A stretch of DNA of 64,000 nucleotides, taken from the NCBI GenBank assembly GCA_012295275.1, contig CM022665.1, forward strand, positions 26,474,001 to 26,538,000. The letters are read 5' to 3'. This document shows, one piece after another, positions 2,053 through 59,600 of the stretch; the first letter of the stretch is position 1, and every line of letters begins with the position of its first letter. A model generated the notes under the pieces. The model made no database searches, had not been told where the DNA came from, and saw only the letters and a list, made by a program, of their open reading frames with translations. The DNA is from Chrysomallon squamiferum. Lineage: Eukaryota; Animalia; Mollusca. A program made the position numbers and the translations under genes.

Positions 2053-3021
2053 CAGCAGCAGTAGTAATATTTAGGTATCTTAATATGATTTTTTTAGAGA
2101 TTGACTGCATTATCAAAGCCTTGTATAATATTTTCCTAATAATTAGCAACAATCTTCATTTTTCTTCTTCTTTTTTTTCACCATAATTATATAGACAATT
2201 AAATGTGTAACATATTTTCTTAAACTTTAAGCCACATAACAATTTTTTTCTTACCTTTATGCATGTCATCTGCAACGTACGTTGTATTAGTCTTTGAGGA
2301 TGGAAGAGTTACATTTTTGTGAATATTTTTGAGACAAGTCCAAAATATCCCACTTTTAAAGTTACATTAATGCCAGAAGACAACACAGACTTTCTTATAC
2401 TGTGACCATCTGGCCACAGCAGCGTCATCTCAACTGGGTGTCTCTGACCGAGTCCAAAATGCGTCACGGGCTCAGAATCTGAACCAGGGTCAACTATCCT
2501 TAGCAATAATCTGTTGTCTGTCAGAAGTAGTTTTACGATGGCACCACGTGCTGGAGCGCCATTTTGTGTCATAGGCATTATTCTTAGCCAGTTATTTTGT
2601 TTTCCCTGTGACACGTGGTACACCGAGAGAGACTGTTTGTTGGCATCTTCGTTAAAGATGTACAGTTCCAGTAAACCATCTCTGTCCATGTCTGCAACTG
2701 TAGCACCTGTGGGGAAAAAAAAAGAAAAAAAGAAAAGGATAAAAATACCATCTGTAATTAGTGATGATCAAATAACTCTCTGAACTTAAAACAAATAGAT
2801 TAAATATATATTTTATAGTTCATACTTTTTTTTTTTTAGTAAACTTTGCTAATAATAAAGAATGATAACTGATTTAAAAATCTGAAATTTATTTTCAGTT
2901 GCATACACATATATACAAACATAAAATAATGATGTGGTGATGAAGATTATAACGATGGTAATAATAATACATCGATAGATTGTAAACCGTTTTAAAGTTT
3001 AAGTAATCAGAGTCCATCGGA

Positions 3022-3065
<44 letters not shown>

Positions 3066-4315
3066 ACAAGTCTACTGTACTGAAAATGTATTAAAGCAGT
3101 TTGTTTGTATGTGACACTTTAAGAAATCGTGTTCATTACTATGAACCAACCAAAACAAGATTTTCTTGAAAGTTTTTTTCTTTTTCTTCAGATACATCCA
3201 GCATTTGTCATAGAAATGAAAGAGAAAACCAGTACGTTTTGACTTGTTAAAAGCGAACAAAACACGTATTGTCAGGTCTGTCAGACTCACCTAGTGAAAA
3301 TACTGGTAATTCTTGTTTCTTTTTGTTTATAAATGACCTTAATGTCAGTGTTTTGGAAACATAATTGTAAACGGTAAAATGAAATAGCAGTTAATATATT
3401 ATCCACTTTCAAAATGATTATTTGCACAAACTTTTCTTTTTATTCTGAAAACTGCGATTCTCTAGAATTAATCAATTCAGAGACAAATTTTAGAAATATA
3501 ATAATGTTTTTACTACAGAAACAAAATTTCCTCATAAATAAAAATTTTGTATAGTAAACTGAATGTTTTGCATCTCGTTAAACATGTTTCTAGTGTAAAA
3601 TTTCATAATATAATTTCTGCTGTTATTACCAGTGGTTCATAAGAAAAAACCTTAATAAATATCAAGTCGGAACAGAACAAACCAAAAATTGTTTTAAATT
3701 CATATATATATATATATATATATATCATCTTAAAAGATTATATCATCTTTGATTTTTGTTTGTTTGATTTTTTAATTTTTAATTTATTTTTTTATTATTA
3801 TTTTTTAGTTATTTGTTAAAGTAGTAATTATTCTCGTAGATGTTTATTATCATCACCTTCATCATTATCATAAGTATCATTATTATTATTATCATCATCA
3901 TCACTATTATCATTAACATTATTATCTTCATCATCATCATCATTATTATTATTATTAAACATTTGCAATCGTTACGTGTTATGTGGCCACCAGAAAGTCT
4001 AGCATCTCCAGCACTTATATTTATCAATAAAATGTCATCTTCACTCGACTCTACTCTATACAATGAGTTTTCAGTTGTTAAGGAAACACCTGTATCAAAC
4101 GGTGACTGGTAAAACTCATTCACTAGTAGCATCTCCAAAACCCCGTCATTGTCAAAGTCTGCAACTATTACACTTTTCGCTAAAGACATTTCCTCAAACT
4201 GTTTTATAGCTTTATTCTACAAAGAAAAGAAAAGAAATAGAAAAAAAAAATAGCTTGATGTAAAAATTGCGAATTAAATTCTACATTAACAAGGGCAGAG
4301 CTTATGTTTTGGGTA

Positions 4316-25900: not shown

Positions 25901-28900
25901 TTTCCTGTGAATTGTCACAATTAGTTACCTGCTTTATGTTTAAATGATTTTTGAGAAACAATTTCTGAAAAAAATAATCATTTACTAATAACTGAATGCC
26001 ATTTTTATTCAAATGTTTATTATTTCATAAAACCAGAGAGTTTTGACTGAATTAAGCATTTTACTAATCAAACCATTAGTTTAAGAAGATAATAAAATAA
26101 CTAATTAAATGAAAAACCTGAATAGTCGTTTTCAGTTCATTGGCAGTGTCAGTGAAATTCAGTTTTTCCTCTTCCAGCTGAACTGTTCTTTCTTCATTTT
26201 CTTTCAGTCTGTATTTAATAAATAAATAAATAAATAAATTAGTATGTGAATCAAAAAAGTTAGTAAATAACTTAATAAGTACTGACAGAAAAAATGAACA
26301 ATGTTATCTTTATCTAAATGTAATGGATGGAACTATATTGATTTACAAACTATGTTACTTTCAAGATTAATTATAAAGAATTAATTATTAACATTAAAAC
26401 ATTTAAGGATAAAGATAATCTCTACATACATAATTAAAAAGCAGGTATGTATCACCTGTTATAAAAATGAGTAGTAATTACATTTTATTTAAAAACCAAC
26501 AAAAAGAAACAAAGAATTGTCTCCTCTTAGATCACGAAATGGATGATTTAGGGAAATGTAGGCTGTCCTTGGAATTCAAAATTAATATCAGAAGCAGTGT
26601 TTTTTTTCTTTTTTTCTTTCTTTCTTTTTTTTTTTTTTTTTTTTTTGGTTTGAATTGATTACCAAATGTATTTTCAGCAACTATATAAAGGTATAAAATT
26701 TATACCCATTAAAGACAATGTGCAAACTGCAAAATCAGTAAGGAAAGAAAAACATTCTAGTATTAAATTTCTAATAACATTCTATAAAAACAACTTCATC
26801 TCACTTGAGCTCTGCATCAGATTTGGCTTCCAGGAGTGACTGTGTTTTACTTTCTATTTCCTGTAATTTGCTTTCCAGCTCCTGTTTTTCTTTAGACAGA
26901 GTTGAAGTGGTTTTTTCAGTAACCTTCAGTTCTTGTAATATTGCTTGTCTGTCATTGGCAAGAGACTGGTGTAAAAAAATTTAAAAAATAAAATAAGAAA
27001 TAAAAAATAAAACACACACACATACATATATAAATAGAATAATATAATAAAATAAGATATATTATTAAAAAAAACATACTAAGTTAGCATATTTATATAT
27101 CCAACCAATTGAAAAAAATAAAAAGAATAAATAAATTAAAATAAAGAGAATATATGGCCATTATTAATTAATTTAAATAATGAATCTGTGATTAAAAAAT
27201 ATGTATTGTAACACCTCAGCATATTTTATTATTAATGATTATTAGGAATAAAGTCATTTTATTTTCAGACAAGAAAATCTGTTACCATTCAACTGGATAT
27301 TCTTACTGATTAATCCCACAGTATTTTTAATATACACTTTGACACAGATAGTAAAACATATATCATAGCTATTGGTATGACAGTCACTGGACTATAACAG
27401 AAATTGGAAATAATCAAATGGATGCTGATGATGATGGATTCTGGAAACCATCACTTTGCTGACTAATGCTCTTCCACATCACAAGAGTCCAATCCAAACA
27501 AAACTTTAAAATCTGATTTAAGAACCTCTGAAGAGAAAGTATGTGTACTAACTTCCAAAGCCTGCTGTTGCTCATTGAGTGTGTCTGCTAAACGAATTCT
27601 GTCCTCGTGCAGGGCTGTCATTATATCTGTGGTGTCTTCCAGCTCTCTGTGTAAAATATACACAGGTTCAACACAGTTCTTAGACAATACACATACACTG
27701 ATTTGTAAAGTACTGATTATCAGTATTAGCATTTTAAATATAATTTTTTAAAACCTATTCCACAATATGTTACTTTATAATATTAAACTGAAAAAAAGAA
27801 GAAAAAAAAAGAAGGTAACTTGTATGAACAAACAACAAAAAAAAGTATGTTGCTCCTATCTGCTAATTGTTTTAGTACTTTAAAATTAAGTTCATTATTA
27901 TTATTATAATTGCAACGGTAATTGAATTCCTTCTCTTTTTTTCAAAATATAAACTTACTCTTTTATCTTTTCATATTCTTCCTGCAACTCCTGGGTGAAA
28001 ACCTCCATCTTCTCTTTCTCTTTTTCCAGTTCCTGGTTCAATCTTTCCAGCTCCTGATACATATTTTCAATTAAACTGTTATATAGTATAAACATAAAGC
28101 CTAATTACATTTTGTTTTCGTTATTTGTTAAATTTTCTTTAGCAACCTTTGTTAACAATAAAGTCAGACAATGAAATAAGGTGGAAAAAACATCCTGACA
28201 ACAACCACAATTAAAAGTGAAAGAGGCATATGGTAACCATAGATTGTTCAAATGGTTTTCTTTATTCAATTAAGTATTCTTGAGTTAAACAGGTGTAAAA
28301 TAAATTAATAATATAACCCATAACAAAGTAAAAATAATATGAATTATTATCAACTACAAACCTCAGTTCTCATTTTTTCTTCAGATAAAGCAAACACTTC
28401 TGACTGAAGCTGATCTAAAAAGAAAATGTATACACAGAAATAAATTAACATCTGCTATCAAACTGATGCTACTACTAGTGAAGAAATATATTACAAATAT
28501 AATGTATATATACTGTCACTACAACAGCACAAATTTTTGGATAAAGCAGTTGTATAACAAAATTAATAAAAAATTTGTTAACAGCACAACACTACTGTAA
28601 TTTCTTACCAATGTAATACTGTTTTTCTCAGATAAAATTAAAAGAATTTTCATCTAAAGTACAATAACAATGTAATTTCTTACCAACATAATCCTCTGGG
28701 AAAACTAAAATGAATTTTTATCTGAAGCACATTAATATAATATAATTTTGCACAAAGTAACTCTGTTTTTCTCTGGATAAATTGAGAGAAATTTCAGTGA
28801 AAGTACTGTCATTTCTTACCAAAGTAATCCTGTTTTTCTCTGGACAAACTGAGAGAAATTTCATTAAAAGTACTGTCATTTCTTACCAAAGTAATCCTGT

Positions 28901-30628
28901 TTTTCTCTGGCCATCTGTAGACCCTGACTTTCTAACTGACGAATCATCTCATCAGCAAGAGTCATATTCTTCCAGGTTCTGTGAGATAACATTATTACCA
29001 CATATCATTATTAATACTTATTATCAACTGGTTAACTGAGTACATTATGGACACACAGACATCCCCCATCACCAATCCACACACACACATTACAAATACA
29101 GAAAAAATGTTACTACATATATAGTAAACAAATTAAGAAAAATATCAGATTTTATATAGATCAAGTTGACACCCTCCTTGCCAAAAAAGAAAGAAAATAT
29201 TTAAAAAATCTGAACTGTGTAAATTATTAGACTTAATCAATATAAAATAAATAAACTTAGAAAAATATGACAGGTTTTTTTTTGTTTTATTGATATGTAA
29301 CCAATCCACAAAACAAAAACCTTAAACAAACCTATCTCTGTGTATGTGTGTGTATGTAAACTGTATAAATAAACTACTTTTAAACTTACACTCGTCTAGA
29401 CTTTTCCATGATTTCCATCCACTGTGATCTTTCATACTCACTCTCTGCTGCTAGGACTAGTTGTCCCTAAAATTAAAAATAAAGCCAGATAAATTTTAAC
29501 ACACAGATTCAATGGAAGCAAACTATTAATAGGATATCTGAACTTAACAGTTATAAATATAACATTCAAATTTCAAGTACAAAATGACCTCCCTACTAAA
29601 AAAAAAAAAAAAAAAGTATATATCTATATATATTTTTTTTTTTTAACAAACTAGAAAAAATTATATTGTATTGCATTAATATAATGCAAATTCTACAACT
29701 TTTGATGCAATTATTTATATAAAAGGTTCAGTTTCTGTGAACACAGATATATATATCTAATCCTTGTTTATGCCTTTATCAAATCCGTAATTAAAAAAAT
29801 AATAATTAAAACAATCTTTACCTCTTCTTACTAATTTAACCATACATTTTAATAAAATAACTAATAAACATTTTCTCTACAATGCTGTAATTAGAAAACA
29901 AAACAAATTAAACTGTTTTATTTTATCCTGTATATAACATTTTATTTTTAAAAACTGAGAACATTTTTTTTTCTATGAATGTATTACTAATACAAGAAAA
30001 TTATTGTTGTTTTTTTCATTTTGATCAAAAGATGCAAAAACAAACTACTCTATTTTTTTTTTTTTTTTTTTTTTTTTATAAATGTATAAGCCAGTATTGT
30101 TCCAGAATATTTATTATTTGTGTTGTCAAATTGTTTTCTGTAGGTTTCTTCATGTTATTATTATTTTTTTTTTTTGTTATCTGGGTTTTTTTGTTGTTTG
30201 TTTTCTTCTTTTTTGTGTTGTTTTTCTTAGTTTTGTAACTGTTTCCTTTTACTCAGGAAAATATTACATACATGTGCCTTGAATGCAGACATCTGGATTA
30301 ATTATGTTATTTTCCCTCAAAGCATGACATCATCAGCTTTAACTATATTACACAGACTTAATTTGTAACATGGTGGTCTTCACAAACAACAAAGACACTG
30401 TCCAACTATCTAATTACAGAGGTGTAGATACACAGCTTCTATAGAAAATTCTCAATTTAGCTTGCCCTATTTTAACTTTTTTTTATTTTTATTATTTTTT
30501 TTATTTGTTTAAGCAAACAGGTACATTTAAATGTGTCAGACAATTGTTTATCTGTGGTTTATCAGAAACTTAGTGAACAGGTGTGTCTTTAATTATGGTT
30601 ACCATGTTCTCAAGAGGAAAAATCAGAA

Positions 30629-36700: not shown

Positions 36701-37288
36701 TACACAAACAATATAATTATATAAGCAACAGTTGAGGGGGGACATTATTCAGCAGTTTAATGTGAGTTTCTTAATAACTATTTTCTTCTTCTTTTTAATT
36801 TTTTTTTTTTTTTTTTTTTTTTAAATGCAATTTATAATAGTATTTGTAAAAAGTTAACAGCATCAAACATTATGATGGTATGAATTACATATATAATCTT
36901 CATGACATGAAAATCTGTAGACATGGTCACGATTGTGTTCATTGAATTCTGCATATATTTCCTACAAGTTGTTAAAAAAGTATGCTATGGTCATAATCAT
37001 GATAATGGTGTGAATTTATGAGGGATCAAATATGCGTTTGATTTATATATTTCTTCACCTATCATCAAAACCTTGCAAAAGCACACATACACTACATACG
37101 ATACGATGGATTTCTGTTTATAGCACTGAGGACAATATATAGCTGAATATGATGTATCTGTACACTTACCTTCTTGCCCACTTGCTCGACTTGTGTCCAA
37201 AAGGTCTTTTACACAGACTTCCATAAATTTGTATTCTTGACGCCCAATCTCCTCGTTTACACTGAACTTCTGGCATATTGTTGTTCAT
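16345..37288 (-). CDS. PLEKHD1: Pleckstrin homology domain-containing family D member 1-like (N-terminal PH domain + long coiled coil), 14 exons, ~483 aa
   Basis: Exons: 37288-37170, 33460-33367, 32345-32256, 29466-29390, 28978-28887, 28414-28362, 28053-27959, 27646-27553, 26965-26805, 26208-26118, 25653-25612, 25024-24874, 24541-24404, 16499-16345. Total 1452 nt, all phases consistent. Translation includes IQIYGSLCKRPFGHKSSKWARRFF..FNIHPKGIFPLG..LAAESEYERSQW..VTWKN..LESQGLQMAREKQ..EVKARLAAEKRLQEAEGSL..FFE..KPIIMRN, colinear with vertebrate PLEKHD1. Confidence 0.92.
21610..22100 (-). mobile_element. Decayed Tc1-like (DD34E-type) transposase fragment in the last PLEKHD1 intron
   Basis: The minus strand gives IFFVNESRFN, YKDEVL, LQHDNTKPHMAKLT, VLPRPD, TLQQLE..IPQDFIIRVICSM..HGGQTQY across frameshifts and stops. 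These correspond to the FSDESRF / QQDNARPH / WPSPD / GGHTRY motifs of Tc1. Confidence 0.75.
22603..22871 (+). mobile_element. pogo/Tigger-type MITE (~269 bp)
   Basis: Imperfect terminal inverted repeats CATGTTGAAGATCCCTTATCTGA and (reverse complement) TAGGTTGTGGATCCTTTATCTCA, with TA on both sides. Confidence 0.65.
23427..23570. repeat. ~29-bp minisatellite, about 5 degenerate copies
   Basis: A unit like aaatttgaaacttgtataataataaattat is repeated in tandem. Confidence 0.6.
28590..28910 (-). repeat. 67-75-bp tandem array copying the 3' end of PLEKHD1 exon 5 and its splice donor (5 units)
   Basis: The core tttcttaccaaagtaatcctgtttttctctgg recurs with the exon-end/donor junction at 28887, 28820, 28753 (donor mutated), 28684 and 28609. 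Confidence 0.85.
30530..30957 (+). repeat. Pair of ~100-bp diverged direct repeats (30530-30630, 30855-30957)
   Basis: The string atgtg..caa.tgtttatct.tg.tttatca.aaac.tagtgaacaggtgtg..tctttaat.atggt.accatgt...caagaggaaa...cagaaat occurs twice. Confidence 0.7.
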
Positions 37289-37289
37289 G

Positions 37290-37651
37290 TCAATAACAGC
37301 ATTTCCAACAACTATTTTAAATTAGTCATAATACCATATCGCAACTTGAACTCCGTGTTTAGACAAACTGGCGTATCCTATCCAGACTGGATACTAAACC
37401 TTTCACTTCCCTGTTGCTTTTTTACCTAAGGACCGATTTACAAATATACTACGCCAATTTGTAACGAATGTGCCAGTCACTGATTTTATTTCGTTTCGTT
37501 TGTGTTTTATTTTTATTTAAGTTATTAAGTAACTAAGTATGTAAATAAGTAAGTAAATAAATAAATAAATAAATAAAACTTAAGTATTATTTCATTCTTC
37601 TTATAACTGAAATAGCAACAACAACAATAACAATAACAATAAGTGAATAAC

Positions 37652-37682
<31 letters not shown>

Positions 37683-38460
37683 TGTTACCTTTACATCTAA
37701 ATATTACAATTGAAGAGAAAAATGGTAACATGAACTTAATCACATTTCTAATAATCCTTTCCGAATAATTCTGGAGCACTTTTGTATTTTTACACAATAA
37801 GTCGATATATAGATTTATTTGATTAAAAAATAATTTTAATTTATGTGCAGACATGAAAGTCGAAATATATCAGTTTTATTTATTTCTCGCATACAATATG
37901 ATCACAGTTAATTGTTTTGCAAATGAATATAATTCAGTTAAATTATAAACCGAAATTATTTTTGTAATACTGTTTTGCTTTCTCATTATTATTTTAAGAC
38001 AAAGGTACATACGTAGTTAAGTAATATAATATTTTTTGTAACATAATTATAATACATTAAATACTCATATTTAATTTCGAACTCACGTTATCTTTATTCA
38101 TTAGTTTCCTTTTTCTAAAATAAACATTAGGTGATAAAATATATTTTTATAAGAATTTTTTGAAGTATTAACATCATCATCGAAGCAAAATTAAATAAAT
38201 ATAATAATAAATAAAAACACAAAAAACCCACAAACAAACAAAACAAAACCGACTGATAAAATATTTTTACCCATTTGTAAATCAAATATCTATTAAGAAT
38301 TGCTTGGTTTAGGGTCAGTTTTCATGATTCGGATTTCGACCTGTAAAGTGTGGTCATATGTAAAACAAGCTTTGAGTGAAAAGTGCGTCTGAGTCGTCGG
38401 CGCCTTTGTGTTCATTTCAGAAATTTCAGAAATTTTGAAAGAAAATCGACGATTTTAGTG
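37290..38460. promoter_or_regulatory. Probable divergent promoter region shared by PLEKHD1 (-) and HDAC1 copy A (+)
   Basis: CpG-retaining patches at ~37240-37500 and ~38320-38460 sit between CpG-depleted gene bodies. A candidate non-coding exon ends at the donor TTA|GTGAGT (38457/38458), and an acceptor lies at 41080, just before the HDAC ATG. Confidence 0.5.
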
Positions 38461-41109
38461 AGTTAAAGATAGGATACATTTATAATATTATGTCTTATTT
38501 GATATTACACATGTTTCTTTTGTATTTTTCAGTGATTGTTGCAATTAGATGCCGAATTTGAAGCCTTTTCAGAGAATTTTTTTTTTTCAAATAACACGAC
38601 TAGTCAGCGAATATTAGAATGCTTAACACTTTTTATTCCAAAAGATAAATATGTGAAAATTGTATGTGAAGCTTACAATATAATATCAACATTTAAATAC
38701 GCAAATAGCGTTTTAGATAAACAGGTAAAAAAAATAAATAATAATGCATCGTTTTAGACTGGTCACTACTATTCCAGAACTAGCGCCTAATCTTTGTAGA
38801 CTAGTGTTCTAGGCTTTCAAATCCTTTGTCAGGTTTGCCATTAAGGAGAATTTGTAATAGGTTAACAGTTTCTTGAAAATAGTATGCATGCCTTCTGTGA
38901 AATATATTGTACATCAGTTGACAACTTAATATTACATTTGATAATACATTTGATGGTATTTTAAAAGCTAACCATTAAACTTGATTAAGAATATGCCTAT
39001 TGAGACATGGTCAGTTCAGCACTGGAACATCAAAATATCATGGCAGACCAGAATCCATGAAGCTTAATGACATATTTGAGAATGAATTGACTTATTCTTC
39101 TTAAATTACTTGTATATCTTACATAAGAATGATGAAAAAAGATGTCCCTAATGTTACATTTGTAATTTTCATCCATAACTGTCTTGAGTCTGATCACTTG
39201 AGATTTCAAAATCATAAAAATGGCCATTTGTTTACAAATCGAACAAGAACATGCTGTTGTATTCAGTAATGATTTAATTTTTATAGGTCATTCAACAAAA
39301 TTTTGTTTTACTTTTCAGGGTTTGGTTTTGTCCATAAAAAATGTTGAAATGTAGCAGTTTTCAGCCACACACCTTTATTGTCTTCAACAGTGTTTAATTT
39401 GACAAAAATAAGCACTTATTTATGGATTTGAAATAGCTGTTATGTCCTTAATTTGAAATAGCTGTTACGTCCATGGCTGTGTTCTGAACCCTCAATTTTA
39501 TAAATATTGCTATTGTTTTTCTAACTTTATCTCTCATGTTGTTTGGTTGACTAATTCATGGGATACATTTTATATAAATTAACTATCACACTTCAATACT
39601 TCATCTTTTCACCAGATATTAAAGATGAAAGTATCGAAATGAGAAAAAAGTCCCTGCTTTCTAAACTGATACCGAAATCAAAATTTTTTATTTGTTTACA
39701 AAATATCATTAGAATATATTAAATATTAAGCCTACTAAAAAACAACAGTAAAGGCATAATGGTATAAAATTAATGCCTTAATTCCAAAATTAAATTTAAA
39801 ACTTGTACAACTGTATTAAATAAATATTGTGATGTACTTATTTGTATCAAAGAAAACTGTTAATCCACTGGCGATGCATAGATGTTCAGAAGCCATACCT
39901 GAGTGTATCTGAAGACAGGGATATAATTTTAGTTCAGTAAATGGAAGACACATTTTATAAGTAGAAAATCAAAGGAGAAGCTAGATGCAGTAACTTTGGG
40001 ACCAAAACATTTCAAAATTGTTAATTTAAAATGTGCCTATAGCAGAACATTTTTTAGAAAGCAAATCTGTCTGCTCTGTGATGCTGTTTGTGATAACATC
40101 ACAACTACTAAAAAATGGTGGTTTTTTCTAATTCAAAATTGTGTTTTTGAGGAATTTATTTAAATTCTTAATAATGAAATGATTTAATTCAGTAATAAAT
40201 GTTCAAACTACATAATTTAATATTTACTTCCAAAACAGTTTGTGGTGTTTTTTTGTGACAGTATCCAAAAAGTAGATGCATAATGTAGATCTTATCATTT
40301 CATGATTCATGCAGCATTTCACATGAAGTAACAAACTGCAGCCAATTCTGTAAAATAAAAGAATAAAAATGTAGTAAATAATAAAAACCATCAAAAGCAA
40401 CAACTGAATAACATACTAAAATATATCCTGCGTTTTTTATTTTTTAAACTTTTTTTTTTTCATCTCCATTTGGCACTGTTCAGATGTATTTTTAACAATG
40501 TTTATTGTAATAGTAGAAGCAGAAATTTTATCAGTCAGAAATTAAGGTTGGGTTAGATTTTGAAAACATCATTGGCAGATTTCAACTACTAAAAGTGACA
40601 TACTAAACAAATGTAATGTTAAACAATTGTCACGATTGAAACCATCATTAACTAATGGGAGGTAACTGTTGAAACTCCAATATCAAAAACATTTTATTTA
40701 ATCTTGTAATTCACATGACATGACTTAAAAGAAATAAATACAAATTTTAGTGATAATTTCAAAGATAATTCTTGACCAAGTTAATTTTATCCTGATATGG
40801 AACCAAAAATGCACTTGAATGTTTTCCAGATATTTCATATATTCAACACATGTTTTGGATGTTTTTTATATATTTAGTTTAAGAATTTAAAATCTGTTAC
40901 TTTTTTCTTTCTTTTTTCAAATTAACAGTAGTATTAATATTTGAGTTTATGTGTGTTGCTATGTGTGCTCTGATTAAGTTTTGTTTTATTAAGCTTTATC
41001 TAATTTTAAAAATAGTTTTACTTATTGAAGGATTCTTCTGCAATCACGTGTATTTTATTTAATTTCTTTTTTTATTTAAGATTTTGAACACTTCATCTGA
41101 GATTTCAAA

Positions 41110-42648
41110 ATGACCACACAACCTCACAAGAAAAAAGTGTGTTACTATTATGATGGAGATATTGGAAATTACTACTATGGGCAGGGCCATCCCATGAAGC
41201 CCCACAGAATACGAATGACACACAACCTGATTTTAAATTATGGCCTGTACAGGAAAATGGAGATATATCGACCTCACAAAGCCACTGCTGAAGAGATGAC
41301 AAAGTTTCACAGTGACGACTATATCAAATTTCTTAGAAGCATTCGTCCTGACAACATGTCTGAATACAACAAGCAGATGCAGAGGTTTAATGTTGGCGAA
41401 GATTGTCCAGTCTTTGATGGCATGTATGAGTTCTGCCAGCTGTCAACAGGTGGTTCTGTAGCAGGAGCCGTCAAACTGAACAAACAAGCAGCTGACATTG
41501 CTGTCAACTGGGCAGGTGGTCTTCACCATGCCAAGAAATCGGAAGCTTCTGGTTTCTGCTATGTCAATGACATTGTTCTTGCTATCCTGGAATTGTTGAA
41601 GTATCATCAACGAGTGTTGTATGTTGACATTGACATTCACCATGGTGATGGTGTTGAGGAAGCTTTCTACACAACTGACAGAGTGATGACAGTATCATTC
41701 CACAAGTATGGGGAGTACTTCCCAGGAACCGGTGATTTACGAGACATTGGTGCTGGTAAAGGAAAATACTACGCAGTAAATTTCCCACTACGTGATGGTA
41801 TTGATGATGAATCTTTTGAACAGATTTTCAAGCCTGTTGTGACTAAGGTAATGGAGACATATCAACCTAGCGCAATTGTCCTTCAGTGTGGAGCAGATTC
41901 ACTTTCTGGAGACAGATTAGGCTGCTTCAATATTACCCTTAAAGGTCATGGAAAGTGTGTTGAATACATGAAGAAATGGAATCTTCCCATACTGCTTTTA
42001 GGTGGTGGAGGCTACACAATAAGAAATGTTGCTAGATGCTGGGCCTTTGAAACATCTGCTGCTCTAGGTGTTGAAATAGCCAATGAATTGCCATACAATG
42101 ATTATTTTGAATACTATGGGCCAGACTTCAAGCTTCATATCAGTCCCTCAAACATGGCTAACCAGAATACACCAGAGTATTTGGACAAAATCAAAACTAG
42201 ACTGTTTGAAAATCTAAGGATGTTGCCCCATGCACCTGGAGTACAGATGCAGGCAATCCCTGAAGATGCTGTACCAGATGATAGTGAAGATGAGGACAAA
42301 GAAAATCCCGATGAACGTGTTTCCATGAGAGCCAGTGACAAAAGAATTGCTTGTGATGAAGAATTTTCTGACAGTGACGATGAGGGAGAAGGTGGCCGAT
42401 GTAATAGGCAGAACTACAAGCCAAAATCTAAGAGACCACGCACAGAAGAGGAAAAAAAAGAAGCTGAAAAATTAGCTGAATCAAAAGAAATAAAGAAGGA
42501 TCAAGAATCAAAGGAAGAAATTAAGCCAGCTGCTGATGAAACTGAAGAGAAGATAGAAGAAAACAAAACTGAGATGTCTAAGACTCCAACTGAAATACAA
42601 GCTGGTGATGCTAAAGAACAGACTAACTCTCAGGAACCTCAGAAATAG
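41110..42648 (+). CDS. HDAC1: Histone deacetylase 1/2 (class I, Rpd3 family), copy A, 512 aa, intronless CDS
   Basis: Near-canonical sequence: [39 protein letters not shown], and a tail with [13 protein letters not shown] and KRPR. Confidence 0.97.
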
Positions 42649-46110: not shown

Positions 46111-47379
46111 AAAGCAACTTGCATCCTAAAGTTACCAATACATCATTTAGTGGACGTGTGATCTGTGAACACAGTATGAAAATTACAAGTATCTAGTATA
46201 GTTCTAGTAATCAAATTACAAAGTTTTTTTATTCCCTGTAGCTATGAAATCAGTTTTTTCACTGGAAAATTCTAATGACCAAACCAGAATGATCCTCCAA
46301 ATATTAGGTTGTAAATGCAATGGGACTATTTATCTACTTTTTATAGCTGAGAGTTGACCTTCTGATTTCCTTAACAAACAGAACATTTTGAGGTTTTTTT
46401 TTTGTTTTTGTTTTTTCTATCACACAGCCCAGTGTCATTTTAAATTTATTTTTTCTATTACCACAAGCAAGATTCAGTAAATTAACTAGTATATAATGAA
46501 AGTATCAACAGTTATTTAAGAACAAATTAGTAACTTTTACAAACAATAACTTAAAAATAATAATAATAAATTATGAGAGAAAGAAAGAAATTATCAGTGC
46601 ATTCATGTTCCTGTGTCTCTTAATGCAACCTCCATGGGGTTACATCAACTCTGAGACCTACTAACATAATACTTAAAGTTTGTTTTTATTTTATTATTTA
46701 TTATTCATTTTTGGTTGTTGTTTTTTTTAACTGCACTAAATTAAAGTAATTTATTTTTAAGTCAATTAATACTATAATAATGAGACGAATAGGAGTAAAA
46801 ATCACATAAAAACACGGACGCTATTTTATCGTAACAACAAACAAAAAATAAAATAAAATGATTTCAGTGTACTAAATATATTAAAAAATAAAAGTGCAAG
46901 CAAATTATATTTTATATTCAATCTTCTGTAATTAAATTCTGATTTGAAGTTAGCCATGAGTGGTTATTATTATATTTATTATTATAACTCCCTATCCAGC
47001 AAAACCGAAATACATGAAGTTCTGTATTTCATAGACGCGGTACAAAATCCTTTGTTGGCTCTTAAATTAGGTATTAGAATTATTTTCATCTTTAGTTTAC
47101 TTTAATATTGGATTTTTATACAAAAAATTAATATTTAGAAGAAAAATACATTTTCGTTACTTATTTTTAAATGTATTTACTTATATTATTTTTTATGAAT
47201 GGGACGATTAAAGTTTTATTATTCGGAACAAGGTAAATATACATAAACGTACCACATTAATTCAACCCCACTTTTTAAACTCACCAGAAAAATTAACTGC
47301 GAATGTTTTGCTAACTTTGTCAAATTTGAGATGTATATACTCGGTTTGGCAATACTGAATACTGTTTGTTTTAATTACA

Positions 47380-47654
47380 AAGACTGGATTAAAAAATATG
47401 CATGATGCAAGCGTAATTGCCTGTAGCAGGTTTTGAACTTAATTATAATTACACGGCATGACGCAGTTTTGTCGGAAAATGCCGATACCATTTTCAAGAT
47501 CGACGACGAATTTTATTGGTCGACTTGATTTATCACATATTTCACATTCGAACGAAGTAGTACGCGTTAGCAGAGTAACACAAGTAATAATTTATATAAC
47601 TAGTGTTTACGTTGAGTTTATCATTCTATGTATTTTGAAGAAGAAAAAGAAAAA

Positions 47655-47705
<51 letters not shown>

Positions 47706-48375
47706 TTTGATCTAATATAATAAACATACATGTATATAATACTTACCTAATTTGTACTCCCATGTGTCCAAAATTATGAGGCAGAGGACATTTTATTAAC
47801 TCCAATGACGTAAGATATGATCCATTACCGCAATTTTAATCAAAATCTGAGTTGTGGTTAATTTTTATTTTTATTATTATTTTTATTTTTAAACTGTGAT
47901 GACCAGTCATGGAACAACCATCAGCACCCCTCCCCTAAAGAAGATAAAATTAGTTGCTGATTTCCATAATATTTCAAGCTTCATGGCCCAAAAATGAAGG
48001 TCTGTCAATGGTCTGATATTTCCAAACAGTATTGATCACACATAGTTATCTAACAGCCTTGCTGCATGTAGCAGAATTTACTATTTAGTACATCTGATAT
48101 GGTATGTGCGTTCTATTACACTTATTTTGCTAATAATAATTGATTTTGAAACAAATAATAAAAACCTTAGAATTTTTAATACAAATTTTTGAATATTATA
48201 TTTCAGTGGATAAACGATACCTTTGTCACCAGCCAATTTTAGGTACAAGCATCGGACAGTTGTATTTAATATTACTCTGCCTGTGCGTTTTTTAACACAG
48301 CTCAGATAACATTGGTCGCTCGCTCGAAAACAACCCGACAATCTGAGAGCCAGGAACTTACAGAGAAGGTAAGAA
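47380..48375 (+). promoter_or_regulatory. Candidate promoter / non-coding first exon(s) of HDAC1 copy B
   Basis: CpG-rich patches at 47400-47610 and 48250-48368, a strong donor GAAG|GTAAGA at 48368/48369, and an acceptor tttcag at 51887 just upstream of the ATG. Confidence 0.4.
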
Positions 48376-50086
48376 AACAACTTCTCATCTTTTAGAGATC
48401 CAATTTATAGAAAAAAAGTACTTGTAAATAATTTTAAAATAAATGTGGCATATTGTGAGATTTTTTTCTTTGGGTTATTTTAAAAGCTAGGAATCAACAG
48501 TAAAATTCAACCCCAAATTTGAATTTTCTTTAATGTGAACGTGACTTCCACTATGTCGTAAACAATGCATAATTTTGATCGAATGTTTTATTTTTATTTA
48601 GGCAAGCTTAAAATAAAGAAAATAAAGGTAAATCATCCGGATGAAGAGATAATTAAAATTTGAATATTTGTTTAAACAACAACAACAAAAAAAATTCAAT
48701 TGCATTAGGTTAATTAATGCTATTATGTATATTTTATTAAATTGTAACGCACACACGCACTCGTACGCACATAGACTCGCAACTATTGCTTCTTCTTCTC
48801 AAAATAAAAATTTGAAGTTTTAAACTTGTTTAAAATATTGAACTAATCCCAGATTATCGAACTGATAATTATGTACACTGCCGTTATTAATTTGGAACGT
48901 ATTATCGGTTTCAGGTGGACACATTTATTAAATGGCTGTACACATGGACTTGGTCCTGAAGAAAAAAAATATTTGTACATTTATAATTAATATCTTGTTA
49001 TCTATGTATTTATTTAGTTATTCACTGTATTTTCGTTTCTTTTTCTCTTTGCCTTTCTGTAATTTGCACTGCAATGTTTATTTCCCTAGACTGAAATGTA
49101 CCACTGTAATACATTTGCTCATGCGATCATAATGACGTCGGCGTACGCTGAGAAATCACAAGAAAAAAAAAATATATATATATTTTTTTCTTTTTCTTTT
49201 AAAAAGAGGAAAAATTACAAGAACAGAAAATAAATAATAATAATAATAATAATTAAAAATAAATAAACAAATAAATAAAAAGAAGAAGAAGATAAGTGAA
49301 GATACTGAAATAAAGCCTTACACCTCGTGAAACTCGATAGCCTTTGTCATACACAAAATTGATAAGAAATTCTTTATTGTCCAAAATCAAATGAGTTCAT
49401 CTGGGGAAATATTTAGAGGCAAAGAACTGGAAAGCCTGAGTATTTCAGACGCTAACTTCTGCAAAACAAAGTCAAAGGGTCACATGGCTCCTATAATATA
49501 ATGAAAAGGCGCAATTTCTCCTAACCCTATGTTGGCAAGTCTTATTGCTGTAATACATATAATATTGGGGTTCGGTAGACTTTACCACTTTAATTTTGAT
49601 TTTCCATACAACATTTAATCGATACAGCCGATTGTACACACATACATTATTTGTAATACTGAAACTCGCTTGTAGATCGCTGCATCTTTGTTTACGAATA
49701 ATTTTATTAGCACTTCAGGTTTCATTTTCTTTTTCTTTATACTGACCCTGGTTCGGGGTCGGCTCAAGAGTATGTGATGCGTTCAGTGGGAGCTGTAGTC
49801 AAATTAATAAAAGATAGTTATTAAATATTATTGTTAGTAAAAATTAAGATAATATCTTGTTCATTTATTCACTGTCGAGCAGTAGATATGTCCTTTTAAA
49901 AACATATATAGATTTTACAAATACGTATATCGGCGGAGTGGAACAAAAGAAAACTGAATATACGTCGACCAGAATAAACCAGTAAGGAGAGGATAAAGAA
50001 CCTCGAAAAATGGCCGTCGTATTCATTTAACTGTTGCAGACCACTCCTAGCCCACGCTTATATCTTGTAAATGGTTGATTGGTGTT

Positions 50087-50133
<47 letters not shown>

Positions 50134-51920
50134 TTTCATATATTATTTATTGATATCAGAAAAAGTCATTCCCCCCAAAAAAAAAAAAATAAAAAAAAAA
50201 AAATATATATATATATATCCCATTAGAACTAGACTGTAGGTGTATAAAATAAAATACCAGCGGAGAAATAAGTAATTAGGATCATTATAACATGTCGCAT
50301 CCATTTCATAGTAAATAAAGGCTCAAGATAATTGTAACGATACAGTCTACATGAAACAATCGGCATCGATTAAGCATTAAGTAAATAAAGCGATTTGTTT
50401 TATTGTTTATTTATTTATTATGATCATTACAGTTATTATTACTTTTTAAAACTTTATTTAATTATTTATTTTGCTATTAAGTTTGTTTTAAAAAAATATT
50501 TTGGAAAAATAATCTGAAACGCAAAAGCATTCGGCATTGTTGATCATAAATGGATAAATAAGTTTCTAATAACTTAAAACACGCTGTTTTGAATAATACA
50601 TGTATCCTATTAAAGTATTAAAATCTTCTTAACTGTCATGAATATAAAGTTAATGTTACAAGAAATGAAAAATAGAACAATGGAACAAAATAAATAAATA
50701 AACAATTACAAAAATTAAGATTTTATTTTTATGGGTATTTCTTAGTAGTAAGTTTTCATATACCAAAAAACAAGTTTTAATCATTTGAAATCATATAAAA
50801 ATGAATTCAGTAAAACTAAAATGTTATCTATCTATCTATATAAATTAGATTTTCGTCATCTTTATAGTGTTACTGGAGAGGAAGCGTTTTTATCTTAAAT
50901 CACGTTTATTGTGATTGCATCATCCATTTTGTTCATTATAATTTTTTGTTCAGAAGCATTCGACATGTAGGTGTCGATCGTTACGTGATAATTATACGAA
51001 AATGGTATCCCCATTTTCTGACACCCTTGATACGCCCCTGAATTACACCAAGCTAATTACTTTTTTAAATCAGCTGTCATAAATAATTTGACTGAAAGTT
51101 ATACAAACATTAGGTTGGCTGAATGTTGTAGTTATTTTAACGAACTTTTGTTGATTTCTTGCTGTGTAACCATCGAATTAAAACTTCAATGTTTGAGGTG
51201 AATTTTTTTTTTTTTTTTTTTTTTGATTTTGATTTTATTTTCTAATACTAATTAAATAAAAAAAAAAAAAAAAAGAAGAAAGAAAAATTTACGACACCCA
51301 TTAATGTTTATTTGATATTTACGGATAACAAATACGTTATGGCAAAAATGTTCATATTGAGTGCATCAGGATATTACGACTTCATAAGCAATAAAAATGA
51401 CGCATAATTTTAGAATTTAAAATAATGATAATAAAAATAATAATAACGCGATAATCTCTTATGTACAAGCAGATATGTTTATGCCCATCAAAGCCCAACT
51501 GGAATGAACACCTGAAAAGAATGATAATAAAATATGTTTTTTAAATTGATGACCACATTGATGTCAACTGACACATGCTAATAACAATATCACAGTAACT
51601 TTAATACCCTAGCAGGGCATCCTGTGTTTATTAGGCCATCAGGTTGTGGGTACAAGTCGATTATTACAGAACAATTATATAATGGAAAATATTCATAAAA
51701 CCACATTATTTTAATAAACGTATTACCTTTGAGCATAGTAGAAGCTACCTGTAATAATCTTTTCCTTTAACGAACAAAACAACATCAAGAAATTTGTAAA
51801 ACTAAAAGGTTATTATTAAAGAAATACGTTTTTGGTAAACGTTTTATTTTTAAGTGATGTTTAAATTTTAATGTTTCATAATTTCAGATTTTGGAAAGTT
51901 CAGCATTTAAGACGACAGAA

Positions 51921-53486
51921 ATGACGACTTCATCTTACAAGAAAAAAATCTGCTATTATTATGATGGAGATATAGGAAATTATTATTATGGGCAGGGTCA
52001 TCCCATGAAGCCCCACAGAATACGAATGACCCATAACCTAATTCTCAATTATGGCCTATATAGAAAGATGGAGGTTTACAGACCTCACAAAGTTACTGCT
52101 GAAGAAATGACTAAATTCCACACAGATGAATACATAAAATTTCTTCAAAATATTCGTCCTGACAACATGACACAGTACACTAAGCAGATGCAGAGATTCA
52201 ATGTTGGTGAAGATTGTCCAGTCTTTGACGGCATGTTTGAGTTCTTCCAGCTGTCAACAGGTGGTTCTTTAGCAGGGGCAGTGAAGTTAAACAAACAGGA
52301 GGCTGACATTGCTGTCAACTGGGCGGGAGGATATCACCATGCCAAGAAATCGGAAGCTTCTGGTTTCTGCTATGTCAATGACATTGTTCTTGCTATCCTG
52401 GAATTGTTGAAGTATCATCAACGAGTGTTGTATGTTGACATTGACATTCACCATGGTGATGGTGTTGAGGAAGCTTTCTACACAACTGACAGAGTGATGA
52501 CAGTATCATTCCACAAGTATGGGGAGTACTTTCCTGGCACCGGCGACTTACAAGACATCGGTGCAGGAAAAGGCAGGTACTATGCAGTAAATTTCCCTCT
52601 GCGTGATGGTGTGGATGATGAATCATTTGAACGAATCTTCCAGCCAGTCATTACCAAAGTCATGGAGATGTTCCAACCCAATGTCATTGTTCTAGTTTGT
52701 GGCGCAGATTCTCTCTCAGGAGATAGATTAGGCTGCTTTAATCTCACTATAAAAGGGCATGGAAAATGTGTTGACTACATGATGAAGTGGAACCTTCCCA
52801 TACTGCTTCTAGGAGGTGGAGGCTACACAATTAGAAATGTTGCTCGCTGCTGGGCATACGAAACGGCCGTCGCCCTCAACATGGAGGTAGCTAATGAGCT
52901 TCCTTACAATGATTATTTCGAGTATTACGGACCTGACTTCAAGCTTCACATCAGTCCATCAAATATGACCAATCAAAATACTACTGAGTATCTGGACAAA
53001 ATCAAAGCCAGATTATTTGAAAACCTGAGAATGCTGCCTCATGCACCAGGCGTGCAAATGCAGTCGTCGGAAGAATCTATCTCTGACGAGACTGAAAATG
53101 AAACTGAAAACAAAAACAGAATTGACAAACGAATCTCAATACGTAGTCCCGACAAGAGAACCACAGGTTTCCAGGATATGCTGGACTACAAACATGACAA
53201 AGGTGGTCGGAGCAACAAGAATTACAAACCAATAACTAAACGTCCACGAACTGATGACAATGATAAAGAGAAAGAAATGGTTATCGAAAATAAAGAAGCG
53301 AGGAAAGAAGCAGAGACAAAGGAAGATGTTAAGCCCAGTGCAACCGACACCGAGATGAAAATGGAAGAAAACAGCGAGGTCTCTGAACAAGAAGCAGAAA
53401 GCCCAACCATTGAAATAAACGAGTCGTCAACCACAGAGGAGACTCAGAAATTAAACCAAGAGATGACGGTTCAGGAAGATCTTTGA
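51921..53486 (+). CDS. HDAC1: Histone deacetylase 1/2 paralogue, copy B, 521 aa, intronless CDS, divergent C-terminal tail
   Basis: Colinear with copy A at an offset of exactly 10811 nt through the catalytic domain. The true start is ATG 51921 ([14 protein letters not shown]), not the TTG at 51891. The HH pair, DxH, the D of GADS and the GGGGY tyrosine are retained. Confidence 0.95.
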
Positions 53487-53612
53487 TAATGGGGGCTTCG
53501 TTTAAATTATATTTTGTGGTATATTATCACCTCCATGTTCGATTTTTGTCAAGAAAAATAGATAACTTTTTAAATGTAACGGGTGATTTTTCTTTAAAAA
53601 AAAATAATAATA

Positions 53613-53652
<40 letters not shown>

Positions 53653-55022
53653 AAATAAAATAATCTTTTGACATAAATAAATAAAAACGAAAATTTTTAT
53701 AAAAAGAAAACGACATCAACAAAAAGAAGTAGAGAAATAAAGATGGTTGACTGTAAATTCCGGCGTATTCAAAAGTGCTAGTGAGAAGAAAAAAATGTTT
53801 CTTACATGATTCACTGTCTACTCATTTGTGGTTATTATTTTCGTTTATTTATTTTCTAACTTACGTTGTTATCATTATTATTATTATTATTATTATTATT
53901 TATCTGGAGTTTTTTAAATTTTTGTTTCTTTTTATTATTATTTTATTTTATTTTTTTTAGGCATGTAACGTCACAAAAAAGACTGGATCACGTGGAACCC
54001 ATGCTAAAAAATTTGAAATAACATTTAGGAAATAAAATATAAGATAAACTGTGTACGTTTATGTTGAGTTATCTGAGGAATTACGGTTTGGTCTGTACGT
54101 ATTCTTGCGTATTGAACAGCCGCAGTTAGCTTGTTTTCTGGAACATTTCGATCGATATTCACACAGCCGCTGGCTATGGACGTCAGTGTGCGTGTAAAAG
54201 CTTCCATTTAATGGAATGCTACCATGGGCCAGGCTGTGGTCAAGCCCATGTAAGGCGTACATGTAGTTTTAATTTTTTATTATTACGTCCTTTTCATATA
54301 CTGAAATGGAGTATTACTGGCAGCTTGGATCGGCTGAAAAGACGTTTCTTTATTTTTATTAATTTTAAAACTGATGTATTATTGCCTCATTGACAGTAAT
54401 TGATGTTTAAATATGTGTACATCATTCAGATTTTAGTAATCACTAGTCCATAATGGGTATTTGGTACTGTAGCAGTTGGGATGGTGTTTGTGCGTTCACA
54501 TTAGTTCATGTGTAGAATAACGTTTGGGGTATAAAATTCCAGTGTTTTGTGATTAAATATGATGCTAATTCAAACTAAAAAGGCCATAAAAAAATAAAAA
54601 TTATAATTGTATAATTATTAAAATAAGCAAAATAAAACGTGCCATGTTTTCTTTTCCCACAACTTAATTTCTGAAATTTTTTTTTCTTTTTTATCGTTTT
54701 TTAATTAATTTGATCATTTACGTTTGTTTTTATAACTTAAAATAAATGAATCTCGATGCATTTTTTTTTTTTTTTTCTTTAGTTAAAATCGGGTCCATTT
54801 GTTTTGAAGTTTCTGTTTTGTTGAAATTTGCTTACATGTGTGTAAATTTTCATTTTATTAATATTTCCAGCAGATCATTTATAAGTTTCATTATCATTTA
54901 CCAATGTAATATTTTTATTTATTATATTTTTTACCTTTTTTAGGTTTTTTTTTTTTTTTTTTTTTTTAAAGACAAATACTCAGGTCTGGTATTTCTTACT
55001 TAAGTCAGAAAAGTTTTAAGAG

Positions 55023-56645: not shown

Positions 56646-59600
56646 TTATGGGTTTTGCTTCATTGAAGCAGGTAAAGGTGGTGCAGGTGGAACTCCAGAT
56701 GCTGCTGTTGCTGCTGGTGTTGACGATATAGGAGATATGCTGCCACTGGACTGAAATAACAAATATTATTGCTAATTAAAATATAATTAATTGAAGGAAA
56801 AAGTATACAAATCACATTTTAACTGAAATGAAATAGATTCTTTGATGTTCTTGTTATTACAATCACAGATGATATTTAATCTGCTGCTATTTAGTTAGAG
56901 TAATTCGCTTTGAGCATCAAGGATTTGTTCCCAACTAGATTTTCTTTTCTTCTTTTTTTTAAATATATTTTAAAATCTACTAATTAATGTTTAAGTCAGC
57001 TGTCTTATTAATAATAAAATGTGTATTTATCTGATTATATATGAAATATAGTTAAACAAATTTTATCAACTAAACTAATGGGAACCCAAAAGGTCTTTGT
57101 GAAATACAAATAAATTAACCTGAACTGTTTCTTCTGTTGATGATTCTGTTTTTGCCTCGTTCTTCTTTTTCTTGATGCAAACAACCACAACAATAATTAT
57201 TATTATCACTACAAGTCCACCACCTAATGAAAATTTTAAAGAAAAAAAAAGTATTTTCAATTTATTTTAAAGAATGAAAACATCTAAATTCAGGATTTCA
57301 GAAAAATGGGGTTGCCATCTTTTGTGGCTATTGGATGTAACATTTAAGATGAAATCAGTTACCCTGGTGAATCTTGGATGATAATTTCTCTGTGAAGATT
57401 TAGAAATGTTTCTTATAAATTGTTATAAAACTGCAGCATCAAACTTTTGTTTCAAGGTATATTTTTTGAAATATAAAATGATATCAACTATATTTAAGAA
57501 ATTCCCTATACAGTTGATAACCTGAAAAAGGATCAACAGACAAAAGCTAAATCTGCTAATATTTTGTTTGATTCAATTGCCCAGTAAAAATTACAACAAC
57601 TGATATTAATAAAATAAAATATATCTAACCTCCACCACCAGCAATCATTCCTAGTGGCAGTCCTCCTTCCTTTCCACCTGAAGCTGGCTTACTTGAAGAT
57701 ACAGCTTTTTTTATAGCTGGACAGATCAGATTCTCTGGATCATCACCAGAATCTGTAAGTTAAATAGATATCAGTGACCTATAAAAATTATCATCTTACT
57801 TATGAACATCACAAACATGAAAATTTTAACCCATTAGACTGACAGTTTTTAAATTATCAGAAAACAATGATAGAAGCATTATTTGGGAGTTAAAAGAGTT
57901 AATACTTGTAGAAGGTTAACGAAAATGCTTATCGAAAATGCTTTTTATATATATATATATATATTAAAATATGAAAGTAGGACTTACTTATTGTATTACA
58001 GGTTTTGTCAAGTGAGTCAAGAACTTCAGATATAGTGTAGCTAACATTATTAGCATCCATTACAACAAATGAAACTTCATATTTCCCATTGCTCAGTTTT
58101 TTCACACTTTGAACATAAACATGAACTTTGGACTCAGTAGATCTTTTCCTTCGGGCAGTCTTAGTCACATCTGCTGTATTAGAAGCCAAGTCAGGAAACC
58201 TTCCATAGCTGGAAACAAAATCTGTCAACCAGGCTTTTAATTCATCCATGTCAGGTGTTACAGATGCAAACTGAAGAACAACCAAACAAGCCTTTTTGTC
58301 TACACAACTTTTGTCTTCTTGGTCAACTTTGGTACACACAGTTGAGAGAAGGAGCAAGAGTTGGTAGCACAGGATTTTGTTAAATACTGACAGTGAATGC
58401 CAGACCGATCAGATGGACATTTACAGATGTAGGTTCGATGCTTGTCAACACATGTACCACCAGCATAGCATGTAGAATCAACACAGTCATCTACACTTTG
58501 GCCGCACAATTTCCCAGTCCAGCCAAACTTGCACACACATTTATACCCCTCTGATTTCAGTTCATCTGGAGTACACACACCACCATTTAAACATGAACTG
58601 TGTGAACAGATGTTGTTCCGAGAGTCACTGATCTCACAGTGTGGGCCACTGAAACCCTTACACTCACAGGAAAACCCACCAACTTCATCAATACATTTCC
58701 CTCCATTAAGGCAAGTACTGTTGTTTTTGTTAACTAAACAGTCATTGATGTTTGAACACTTATAGCCATCTCCTTCAAAACCATCCAAACATTGGCAGAA
58801 TTCATATGTTTCATTCTTTTTCACACATTTTGCATTTGAATTGCATCCCTTTCCATTTTTCATACATCTAATTGATCTTCTGATTAAAATGGTGATTTTT
58901 CTGGAAGATATTTGCTGTGTCTGCATGTTCTTTGCCTGGATAGTCACTGTTACAGACGTGGAAGTAACTTTATCAAAAGTTTTGGCCAAGACTAAATGAG
59001 AATTATTTTTAATTTCGAATAAACTTAAATCATCATCAGTAATTTTAAAAACAATATTTTCTCCTAGTGTTTTGTTGACATTGTACAGAGCACCAATCAT
59101 TGTCCCAGCAGGAGCATCCTCGTTAATTCTTGTATCACTGATAGTAATATCTGGCAGCTGGAGGGCGTTAAGGTCAATACCAGTAATGGGAAAAGTAAAG
59201 ATCTCTTCCAGAGACAGGCTAGGCTGACCATTATCTGTAGCCTTGATAGCTATCTTCAATTCTGGATTTGGTTTGTCCATTTGCTCTGTAGGTATTGGTT
59301 TTATTAAGATTAACTTGGTCTTGTTTTTAACCTGAAAATAGTCCAACAAAAATGTATTACATTAAGGAAATTCCTCCCTACATTAAATACCTGTTAATGT
59401 AATTTGGTTTGTTTCAATAAAAACTAATTATAATGTCACTTTATTCATTTCAGTAGAACAAGTCATCCCTAATGTGCAAAGAAAGATAAACCTGAACCTA
59501 AATATCTTTATTTCATTTATGTAGTTACTATTTTAATTCACAAAATTCTAATACTTAATCTCTTCAGTACCAAGGTGGGTAACGCTGTATGTCAGCAAAC

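Follow-up and report, generated by a model that had tools for sequence, protein, structure and literature searches.

Two HDAC1/2 genes in the window

The locus of Chrysomallon squamiferum described here raises the question of whether the second of two HDAC1/2 genes still does the work of an ordinary histone deacetylase or has taken up another job. The window, that is the whole stretch of 64,000 nucleotides that was analysed, was found to contain both genes, copy A and copy B, on the same strand with about 9.3 kb between them (Table 1), and no third HDAC1 copy was found in it by tblastn of both proteins. Neither copy had an exact match in the protein collection. The core of copy A was identical to the ENA protein P0024 at 351 of 353 positions and to Haliotis at 340 of 353, and the cores of the two copies were 89% identical, with 43 differences across codons 1-382. 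Copy B was found to contain the Hist_deacetyl domain (PF00850, E 3.7e-89) and the arginase-deacetylase fold. Positions are given in copy B numbering, to which 1 is added for the human HDAC1 position.

Both coding sequences were intronless, yet a 5′ UTR intron was predicted for each. The predicted splice acceptor of copy A has its AG ending at 41080, and the presence of homologous predicted acceptors 29-33 nt before the ATG in both copies would fit the tandem duplication, at the genomic level, of a gene that already had a leader intron. The ENA contig also yielded a full-length B protein (P0323), hinting at an intronless coding sequence there too.

The region 37100-38460 upstream of copy A was found to be CpG-rich. 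It contains a candidate donor on the + strand at 38458 and an apparent minus-strand exon end at about 37165, and is possibly a head-to-head promoter common to copy A and an upstream gene. On the minus strand, a gene encoding cadherin and several EGF domains was found to converge on copy B (58300-59361, with smaller exons to about 56650), and exons of an ASPIC/UnbV-domain gene (PF07593 match) were found at 2309-4216. Among the repeats of the window were a 72-nt inverted repeat with arms 97% identical and several short repeats, either direct or in tandem (4927-4998/5473-5544, 28559-28913, 30529-30630/30854-30956, and 25796-25870/28220-28294).

Table 1. Features of copy A and copy B, in positions of the window
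Feature	Positions	Strand	Basis
Copy A, canonical HDAC1/2, intronless CDS, 512 aa	41110..42648	+	ORF
Copy A counterpart of the identical tract	41523..41720	+	alignment
Copy A tail motif (13 residues), kept	42346..42384	+	S420/S422 = human S421/S423 via +1 offset
CpG-undepleted domain around copy B, CpG o/e ~0.9-1.4 outside CDS core	47000..55000	.	vs 0.12-0.36 over copy A gene body
Candidate untranslated leader exon of copy B, donor AG/GTAAGA with GT at 48369	48270..48374	+	consensus match alone
Alternative candidate donor for copy B leader exon	49982	+	consensus match alone
Predicted splice acceptor (AG ends 51887) and 33-nt 5′ UTR part of copy B	51870..51920	+	homologous to acceptor of copy A
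Copy B, divergent HDAC1/2 paralogue, intronless CDS, 521 aa, uninterrupted ORF	51921..53486	+	ORF, domain match, model
Codons 104-118 of copy B, 0/11 synonymous differences from copy A, three B-type replacements Y106F, C109F, V117L	52230..52274	+	p 2e-6, window picked post hoc
F109 (human C110), next to pocket residue F108, helix 105-124; Phe in 3/3 B sequences	52245..52247	+	alignment, model
L117, variable, not diagnostic; L/L/I in B clade	52269..52271	+	alignment
Y138 (human L139), foot-pocket gatekeeper position; Tyr in 3/3 B sequences	52332..52334	+	alignment; role PMC13325672, PMC11532494, PMC7700698
198-nt tract identical to copy A, codons 139-203, with HH pair and two Zn ligands	52334..52531	+	0/45 synonymous sites differ
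V259 (human Q260), near-invariant Gln ending strand 255-259; V/V/L in B clade	52695..52697	+	alignment, model
Copy B tail residues 414-426, motif of copy A replaced	53160..53198	+	alignment

Substitutions in copy B

Four substitutions relative to copy A had been pointed out by a sequence-only reading of this locus, and the codon changes were found to be exact: C109F (TGC to TTC), V117L (GTA to TTA), L138Y (CTT to TAT) and Q259V (CAG to GTT), which are 4 of the 43 differences. The catalysis set was intact, as had been stated, with the His-His dyad (H139/H140), the D-H-D Zn ligands (D175/H177/D263), the tyrosine of GGGGY (Y302), and D98, F149, F204, C150 and R33 all present. V259 lies four residues ahead of the Zn ligand D263.

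The four sites had also been taken to be highly conserved. This held for L138, C109 and Q259, each of which was conserved in 117 of the 118 close homologues (P0003-P0120, with the fused proteins P0001 and P0002 excluded), the sole exception at all three being the B orthologue of Gigantopelta, and it failed for position 117, at which V (93), A (13), I (11) and L (1) were found. P0001, P0002 and P0121 are fused or repeated proteins that head some match lists through their summed score. Among 150 diverse class I representatives (50% clustering), position 138 in its motif context contained L in 103, M in 13, W in 10, F in three and Y in one of 130 rows, and position 259 contained Q in 126, C in five, S in one and N in one of 133 rows, with V or L in 0/133. 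Position 117 was Leu in 47/126 of these rows. The residue Y138 was found in three of the 318 site-covering homologues (337 fetched proteins), all three of the B clade, and no further B-type fragment was found among short proteins in the 120 listed of 659. C109F alone was present in six unrelated short fragments and is thus a weaker marker than Y138 or V259.

By these counts the changes rank from Q259V, the rarest, through L138Y, which is rare, and C109F, which is moderately so, to V117L, which is ordinary. Apart from V117L, the substitutions are rare outside the B orthologues instead of being common in other HDAC1s. V117L was rejected as a diagnostic change, the position being freely variable and occupied by Ile in the ENA B orthologue, and about 19 changes beyond those listed by the sequence-only reading were found to be fixed across the B clade. 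The loss of the tail motif and the tract of likely conversion, both described below, had likewise escaped that reading. The Leu139 gatekeeper and the Gln260 of canonical HDAC1/2 are replaced in copy B by Y138 and V259, and for this reason copy B was filed as a divergent paralogue and not as a canonical HDAC1.

Four basic residues were found to be replaced by uncharged ones in each of the three B sequences (R76Q, R211Q, K241Q and K288M), with a possible change of nucleosome or partner contacts. Separately, a Cys was found at the Gln260 equivalent in the unnamed class I HDACs P0298, P0300, P0395, P0416, P0448, P0449 and P0464, several of which contained a Met gatekeeper; the proteins of the P0298 type form another group altering this site.

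Orthologues and age of copy B

The best single-domain match to copy B was the Gigantopelta aegis protein XP_041352977.1 (P0003), followed by a second B orthologue, the ENA protein P0122, which was found by the region search and has the full-length cluster mate P0323; P0322, an unrelated member of the P0122 cluster with 53 aa, was ignored. All B proteins contained F106, F109, E127, Y138, Q211, V255 and M288, with V/V/L at position 259. In the trees, one of which was made from the core only and without Lingula, in which an anchor motif was missing, support was 100/100 for the B clade, 99/91 for the A pair, and 96/90 for the clade of the five A and B sequences against other molluscs. Descent from HDAC1/2 was also reflected in S112, which is kept as the Ser113 of HDAC1/2 and is Tyr in HDAC3.

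The duplication came before the divergence of at least three sequences: by the tree it predates the separation of these lineages and, given the present sampling, postdates the split from abalones. P0024 and P0122, the longest contigs of which were both 399,283, suggest a possible second tandem A/B pair, and no A-type protein of Gigantopelta aegis was seen among the clustered matches listed. Splits within the peltospirids, the vent snails to which Gigantopelta aegis belongs, are given as 66 or 116 million years (PMC7736800, PMC7895826), dates that indicate only the possible depth of the duplication.

Structure and foot pocket

The model of copy B, built from 109 diverse rows, had a pLDDT of 97, an rmsd of 0.5 A to HDAC2 and a TM of 0.97, and a model built from 40 close homologues (pLDDT 45) was discarded. 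The foot pocket of HDAC2 is described as Y29, M35, R39, F114 and L144, with S113/S118 nearby (PMC7700698, PMC9387782). The equivalents in copy B, placed by spacing, were Y23, M29, R33, F108, Y138 and S112, of which only position 138 was changed. The claim that L139 is a foot-pocket residue with an aromatic counterpart in HDAC8 agrees with these papers. The further claim of a remodelled foot pocket stood for L138 and went too far for the rest, five of the six listed residues being unchanged: C109 adjoins one of the listed residues, V117 varies freely, and Q259, though close to the active site, is absent from the lists. The only mention of Gln260/263/265 of HDACs that was found in the accessible literature was a docking hydrogen bond to Gln263 of HDAC8, which we take to be the equivalent of position 259.

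Position 138 corresponds to Trp141 in HDAC8 and Phe141 in HDAC11 (PMC13110267). The long-chain deacylases of HDAC11 clade B contain a Phe/Tyr gatekeeper, and F141T abolishes the deacylase activity (PMC13325672). In HdaH of Vibrio cholerae, Tyr135 of SGGYHH lines the decanoate, and the de-decanoylase activity was only weak (PMC11532494). The difference in pocket size between HDAC8 and HDAC1 is given in both directions within PMC7700698. An aromatic residue at position 138 together with a kept Gln was found in 14 diverse class I rows, which argues that the aromatic gatekeeper alone is not enough for a new activity.

Residues equivalent to Y14/G16/H38 belong to the ELM2-SANT interface (PMC3710971). 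These corepressor-interface residues and the basic K30/R269/R305 were found to be kept in copy B. The three basic residues presumably bind inositol phosphate.

Rates of evolution and gene conversion

The dN/dS between copy A and copy B was 0.054 (dN 0.073, dS 1.36; bootstrap 0.03-0.08) for codons 8-382 once the identical tract was left out, far from the value near 1 that would have spoken against a working gene. A pseudogene was rejected on this value and on the open frame. In the relative rate comparison with Haliotis, 30 changes were found on copy B and four on copy A (p 6e-6), and the excess on copy B held with four other outgroups and in the ENA pair. The paths in the core tree were 0.133 between copy B and the ENA B protein and 0.006 between copy A and the ENA A protein, copy B being about 20 times faster. 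Copy B is thus constrained, but far less than copy A, and its faster evolution fits relaxed constraint as much as specialisation. Among the three B sequences 39 core sites were variable, which was counted against a specialised reading, and none of these was found in codons 139-203.

Codons 139-203 lie in a tract of likely gene conversion between the two copies, judged from the alignment: its synonymous differences (0/45) contrast with a pS of 0.70 downstream, and a run of its length was reached in 0/20,000 permutations. The tract starts with the last base of the Y138 codon, directly after the two bases that define Tyr, and codons 135-137 just before it all differ silently between copy A and copy B. 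Homogenised stretches beside fixed functional differences are the signature of selection against conversion (PMC3924837). Codons 104-118 and the tract edge at Y138 would resemble this signature, and the edge is only suggestive because it is a single event in one genome and about one in eight of the A/B differences are B-fixed sites.

At codons 126-135 (52296-52324), copy B contained Q126/A128/V132 as in copy A, whereas P0003 and P0323 contained R/T/I. A 23-nt run identical to copy A is present within these codons, flanked by the B-specific E127 and Y138, and may be either a second short conversion or a change common to P0003 and P0323.

C-terminal tail, CpG content and expression

S421 and S423 of human HDAC1 are phosphorylated by CK2. 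The tail motif S-D-S-[ED] was found in 111 of the 118 homologues, in copy A and in P0024, and in none of the three B sequences (copy B, P0003 and P0323), so that the C-terminal S421/S423 phospho-motif of canonical HDAC1/2 is absent from copy B. Phosphorylation of these residues promotes the activity of HDAC1 and its association with proteins (PMC1613246).

The CpG/GpC counts were 124/142 in the surroundings of copy B and 35/139 in the gene body of copy A (Fisher p 1e-8). In the oyster, genes of low CpG o/e tend to be methylated and expressed as housekeeping genes (PMC3840415), and by this pattern the expression of copy B is likely more restricted than that of copy A.

Of 173 sampled words of copy B, a share of 0.95-0.96 was present at contig level in four metatranscriptome runs of one study. 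Only 10.3% of the 31-mers of copy B were also present in copy A, which rules out copy A as the source of these words; carry-over of DNA could explain them. The tract junction words made up only 3.6% of the words of copy B, so that the shares of 0.95-0.96 would be compatible with a polishing error in the tract. Run X5 (share 0.12) was rejected as evidence for copy B, its share being about the 0.103 that is common to both copies, and run X6 (share 0.98) may be the source of the assembly itself.

Function of copy B

Copy B is almost certainly a real and old gene, and most likely a functional one, given its low dN/dS, the words in the RNA runs and the closeness of its model to HDAC2. A decaying duplicate or an assembly artefact would agree with the faster evolution of copy B and with the 198-nt identity, which could be a local polishing error; for the gene this explanation is very improbable and largely refuted, since the frame is open in three lineages, the dN/dS is 0.054 at a dS above 1, independent orthologues are present and B-specific words occur in RNA runs.

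Y138, F109 and V/L259 became fixed in the B clade, from which the tail phospho-motif disappeared. Because the gatekeeper swap and the tail loss are common to two related proteins, the job of copy B likely differs from that of the ordinary copy. Judged from the residues, the chances are about even that copy B is a specialised class I lysine deacylase with a repacked product pocket, an altered preference for both acyl chains and inhibitors, and changed regulation. It would be an old tandem HDAC1/2 duplicate kept under purifying selection with all of its Zn-binding and catalytic residues, and its catalysis would follow the normal Zn/His-His/Tyr mechanism. With Tyr as gatekeeper and no polar residue in the place of Gln260, the product (foot) pocket would be repacked, and a shift in acyl preference and benzamide binding is proposed. 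Copy B would probably dock into ELM2-SANT corepressor complexes, given the kept interface and basic residues, with no need of tail phosphorylation. Conversion may keep codons 139-203 in step with copy A, selection preventing the overwriting of Y138, and the CpG-undepleted gene body may point to a copy B restricted by tissue or condition, with copy A as the housekeeping copy.

A narrower version of this proposal, drawn by analogy and unlikely as a whole, is that copy B is a medium- or long-chain lysine deacylase, borne by corepressors, which in the ancestors of vent snails converged on the aromatic gatekeeper of HDAC8, HDAC11 and VcHdaH. It would include freedom from tail phospho-control, a tissue-specific switch-on, possibly in symbiont-hosting tissues, and a conversion stopped at the gatekeeper codon.

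The same substitutions could also have arisen as a compensating repack, Y138, F109 and V/L259 being fixed in an early phase of relaxed selection, so that copy B would be an ordinary histone deacetylase differing in expression and tail control. This regulatory subfunctionalisation is possible, if on the doubtful side: the fold and five of the six listed pocket residues are unchanged, the bulky gains Y138 and F109 are paired with the loss of a long side chain (Q259), faster evolution continues across the surface, and the CpG state differs between the copies, but three near-invariant sites were changed and then fixed in kind over three lineages while 39 others varied, and the B-type residues are exactly those spared by the conversion pattern. 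An attenuated or nearly inactive HDAC1 that serves corepressor complexes as a scaffold, or competes within them, with Tyr138 blocking product exit and the loss of the Gln and the tail lowering turnover, is quite unlikely. The channel mutations R35K and C152A do impair the activity of HDAC2 (PMC10680841). The activity-promoting tail sites are gone, the basic surface residues are neutralised, and the conservation of codons 139-203 could come from conversion instead of selection; however, D98, D263, G299-Y302 and R33 lie outside the tract and are kept in all three B sequences, and pseudo-enzyme HDACs are typically without the Tyr or His residues.

No description of a histone deacetylase of Gigantopelta was found in the literature covered, from which subscription journals are mostly absent, and the main texts of the vent-snail genome papers PMC7736800 and PMC7895826 contained no mention of an HDAC or deacetylase, although their supplements may list the gene. 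Among the matches listed on HDAC1 duplication in molluscs, nothing concerned the A/B pair, which is apparently undescribed. Since the active sites of HDAC1/2 hardly vary among animals, natural changes of the gatekeeper and Gln260 in an HDAC1 scaffold are rare. The pair and the three orthologous B versions therefore form a ready-made experiment on the acyl-chain and benzamide selectivity of class I HDACs, and the pair also probes whether HDAC1 can dispense with tail phosphorylation. It is, moreover, a compact candidate case of an essential chromatin enzyme whose copies stay divergent in spite of gene conversion. If copy B were indeed a long-chain deacylase, it would show how nature switches the acyl specificity of HDAC1 with two or three residues.

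Comparison with known systems

A lineage-specific second copy was also reported for hdac1/2 of Dimorphilus gyrociliatus (PMC12153100), for which, unlike copy B, the accessible text of that paper reports no divergence of the active site. The Gigantopelta protein XP_041352977.1 was 81% identical to copy B overall and the ENA proteins P0122/P0323 about 77%, with V or L at position 259 and L or I at position 117. The automatic name of XP_041352977.1, 'probable histone deacetylase 1-B', is silent on its divergence and is also borne by canonical mollusc HDAC1s. The red/green opsins, treated by the Teshima-Innan model (PMC3924837), resemble copies A and B in their homogenised stretches beside fixed functional differences; unlike the opsin duplicates, copies A and B are close to synonymous saturation over most of their length and homogenised in short stretches only, as seen in a single genome.

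HDAC8 contains an aromatic residue (Trp141) in a class I fold at the same position as Y138 of copy B. Its identity to copy B was about 41-42%, and HDAC8-like rows keep the Gln, whereas copy B keeps interface residues of the HDAC1 type. HDAC11 clade B and VcHdaH contain GGxHH with an aromatic x (F141 in GGGFHH and Y135 in SGGYHH), as does copy B in AGGYHH, and the gatekeeper of copy B is thus of the HDAC11 type. These proteins belong to the class IV lineage with an extended hydrophobic pocket of 17 A, whereas the distal pocket residues Y23, M29, R33, F108 and S112 of copy B are those of HDAC1/2. Membership of copy B in class IV was rejected, none of the 50 listed fold matches being class IV and copy B nesting in the mollusc HDAC1/2.

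Copy B was closest to HDAC1/2, with 85% identity against 62% to HDAC3. Human HDAC1 (4BKX) and HDAC2 (3MAX) superimpose on it with an rmsd of 0.5-0.7 A over about 367 residues, and their catalytic, Zn and channel residues and S112 (human S113) are retained in it. Unlike the metazoan HDAC1/2, copy B is a fast-evolving tandem paralogue that contains a Tyr gatekeeper and a Phe at the position of C110, with no equivalent of Gln260 and no S-D-S in the tail.
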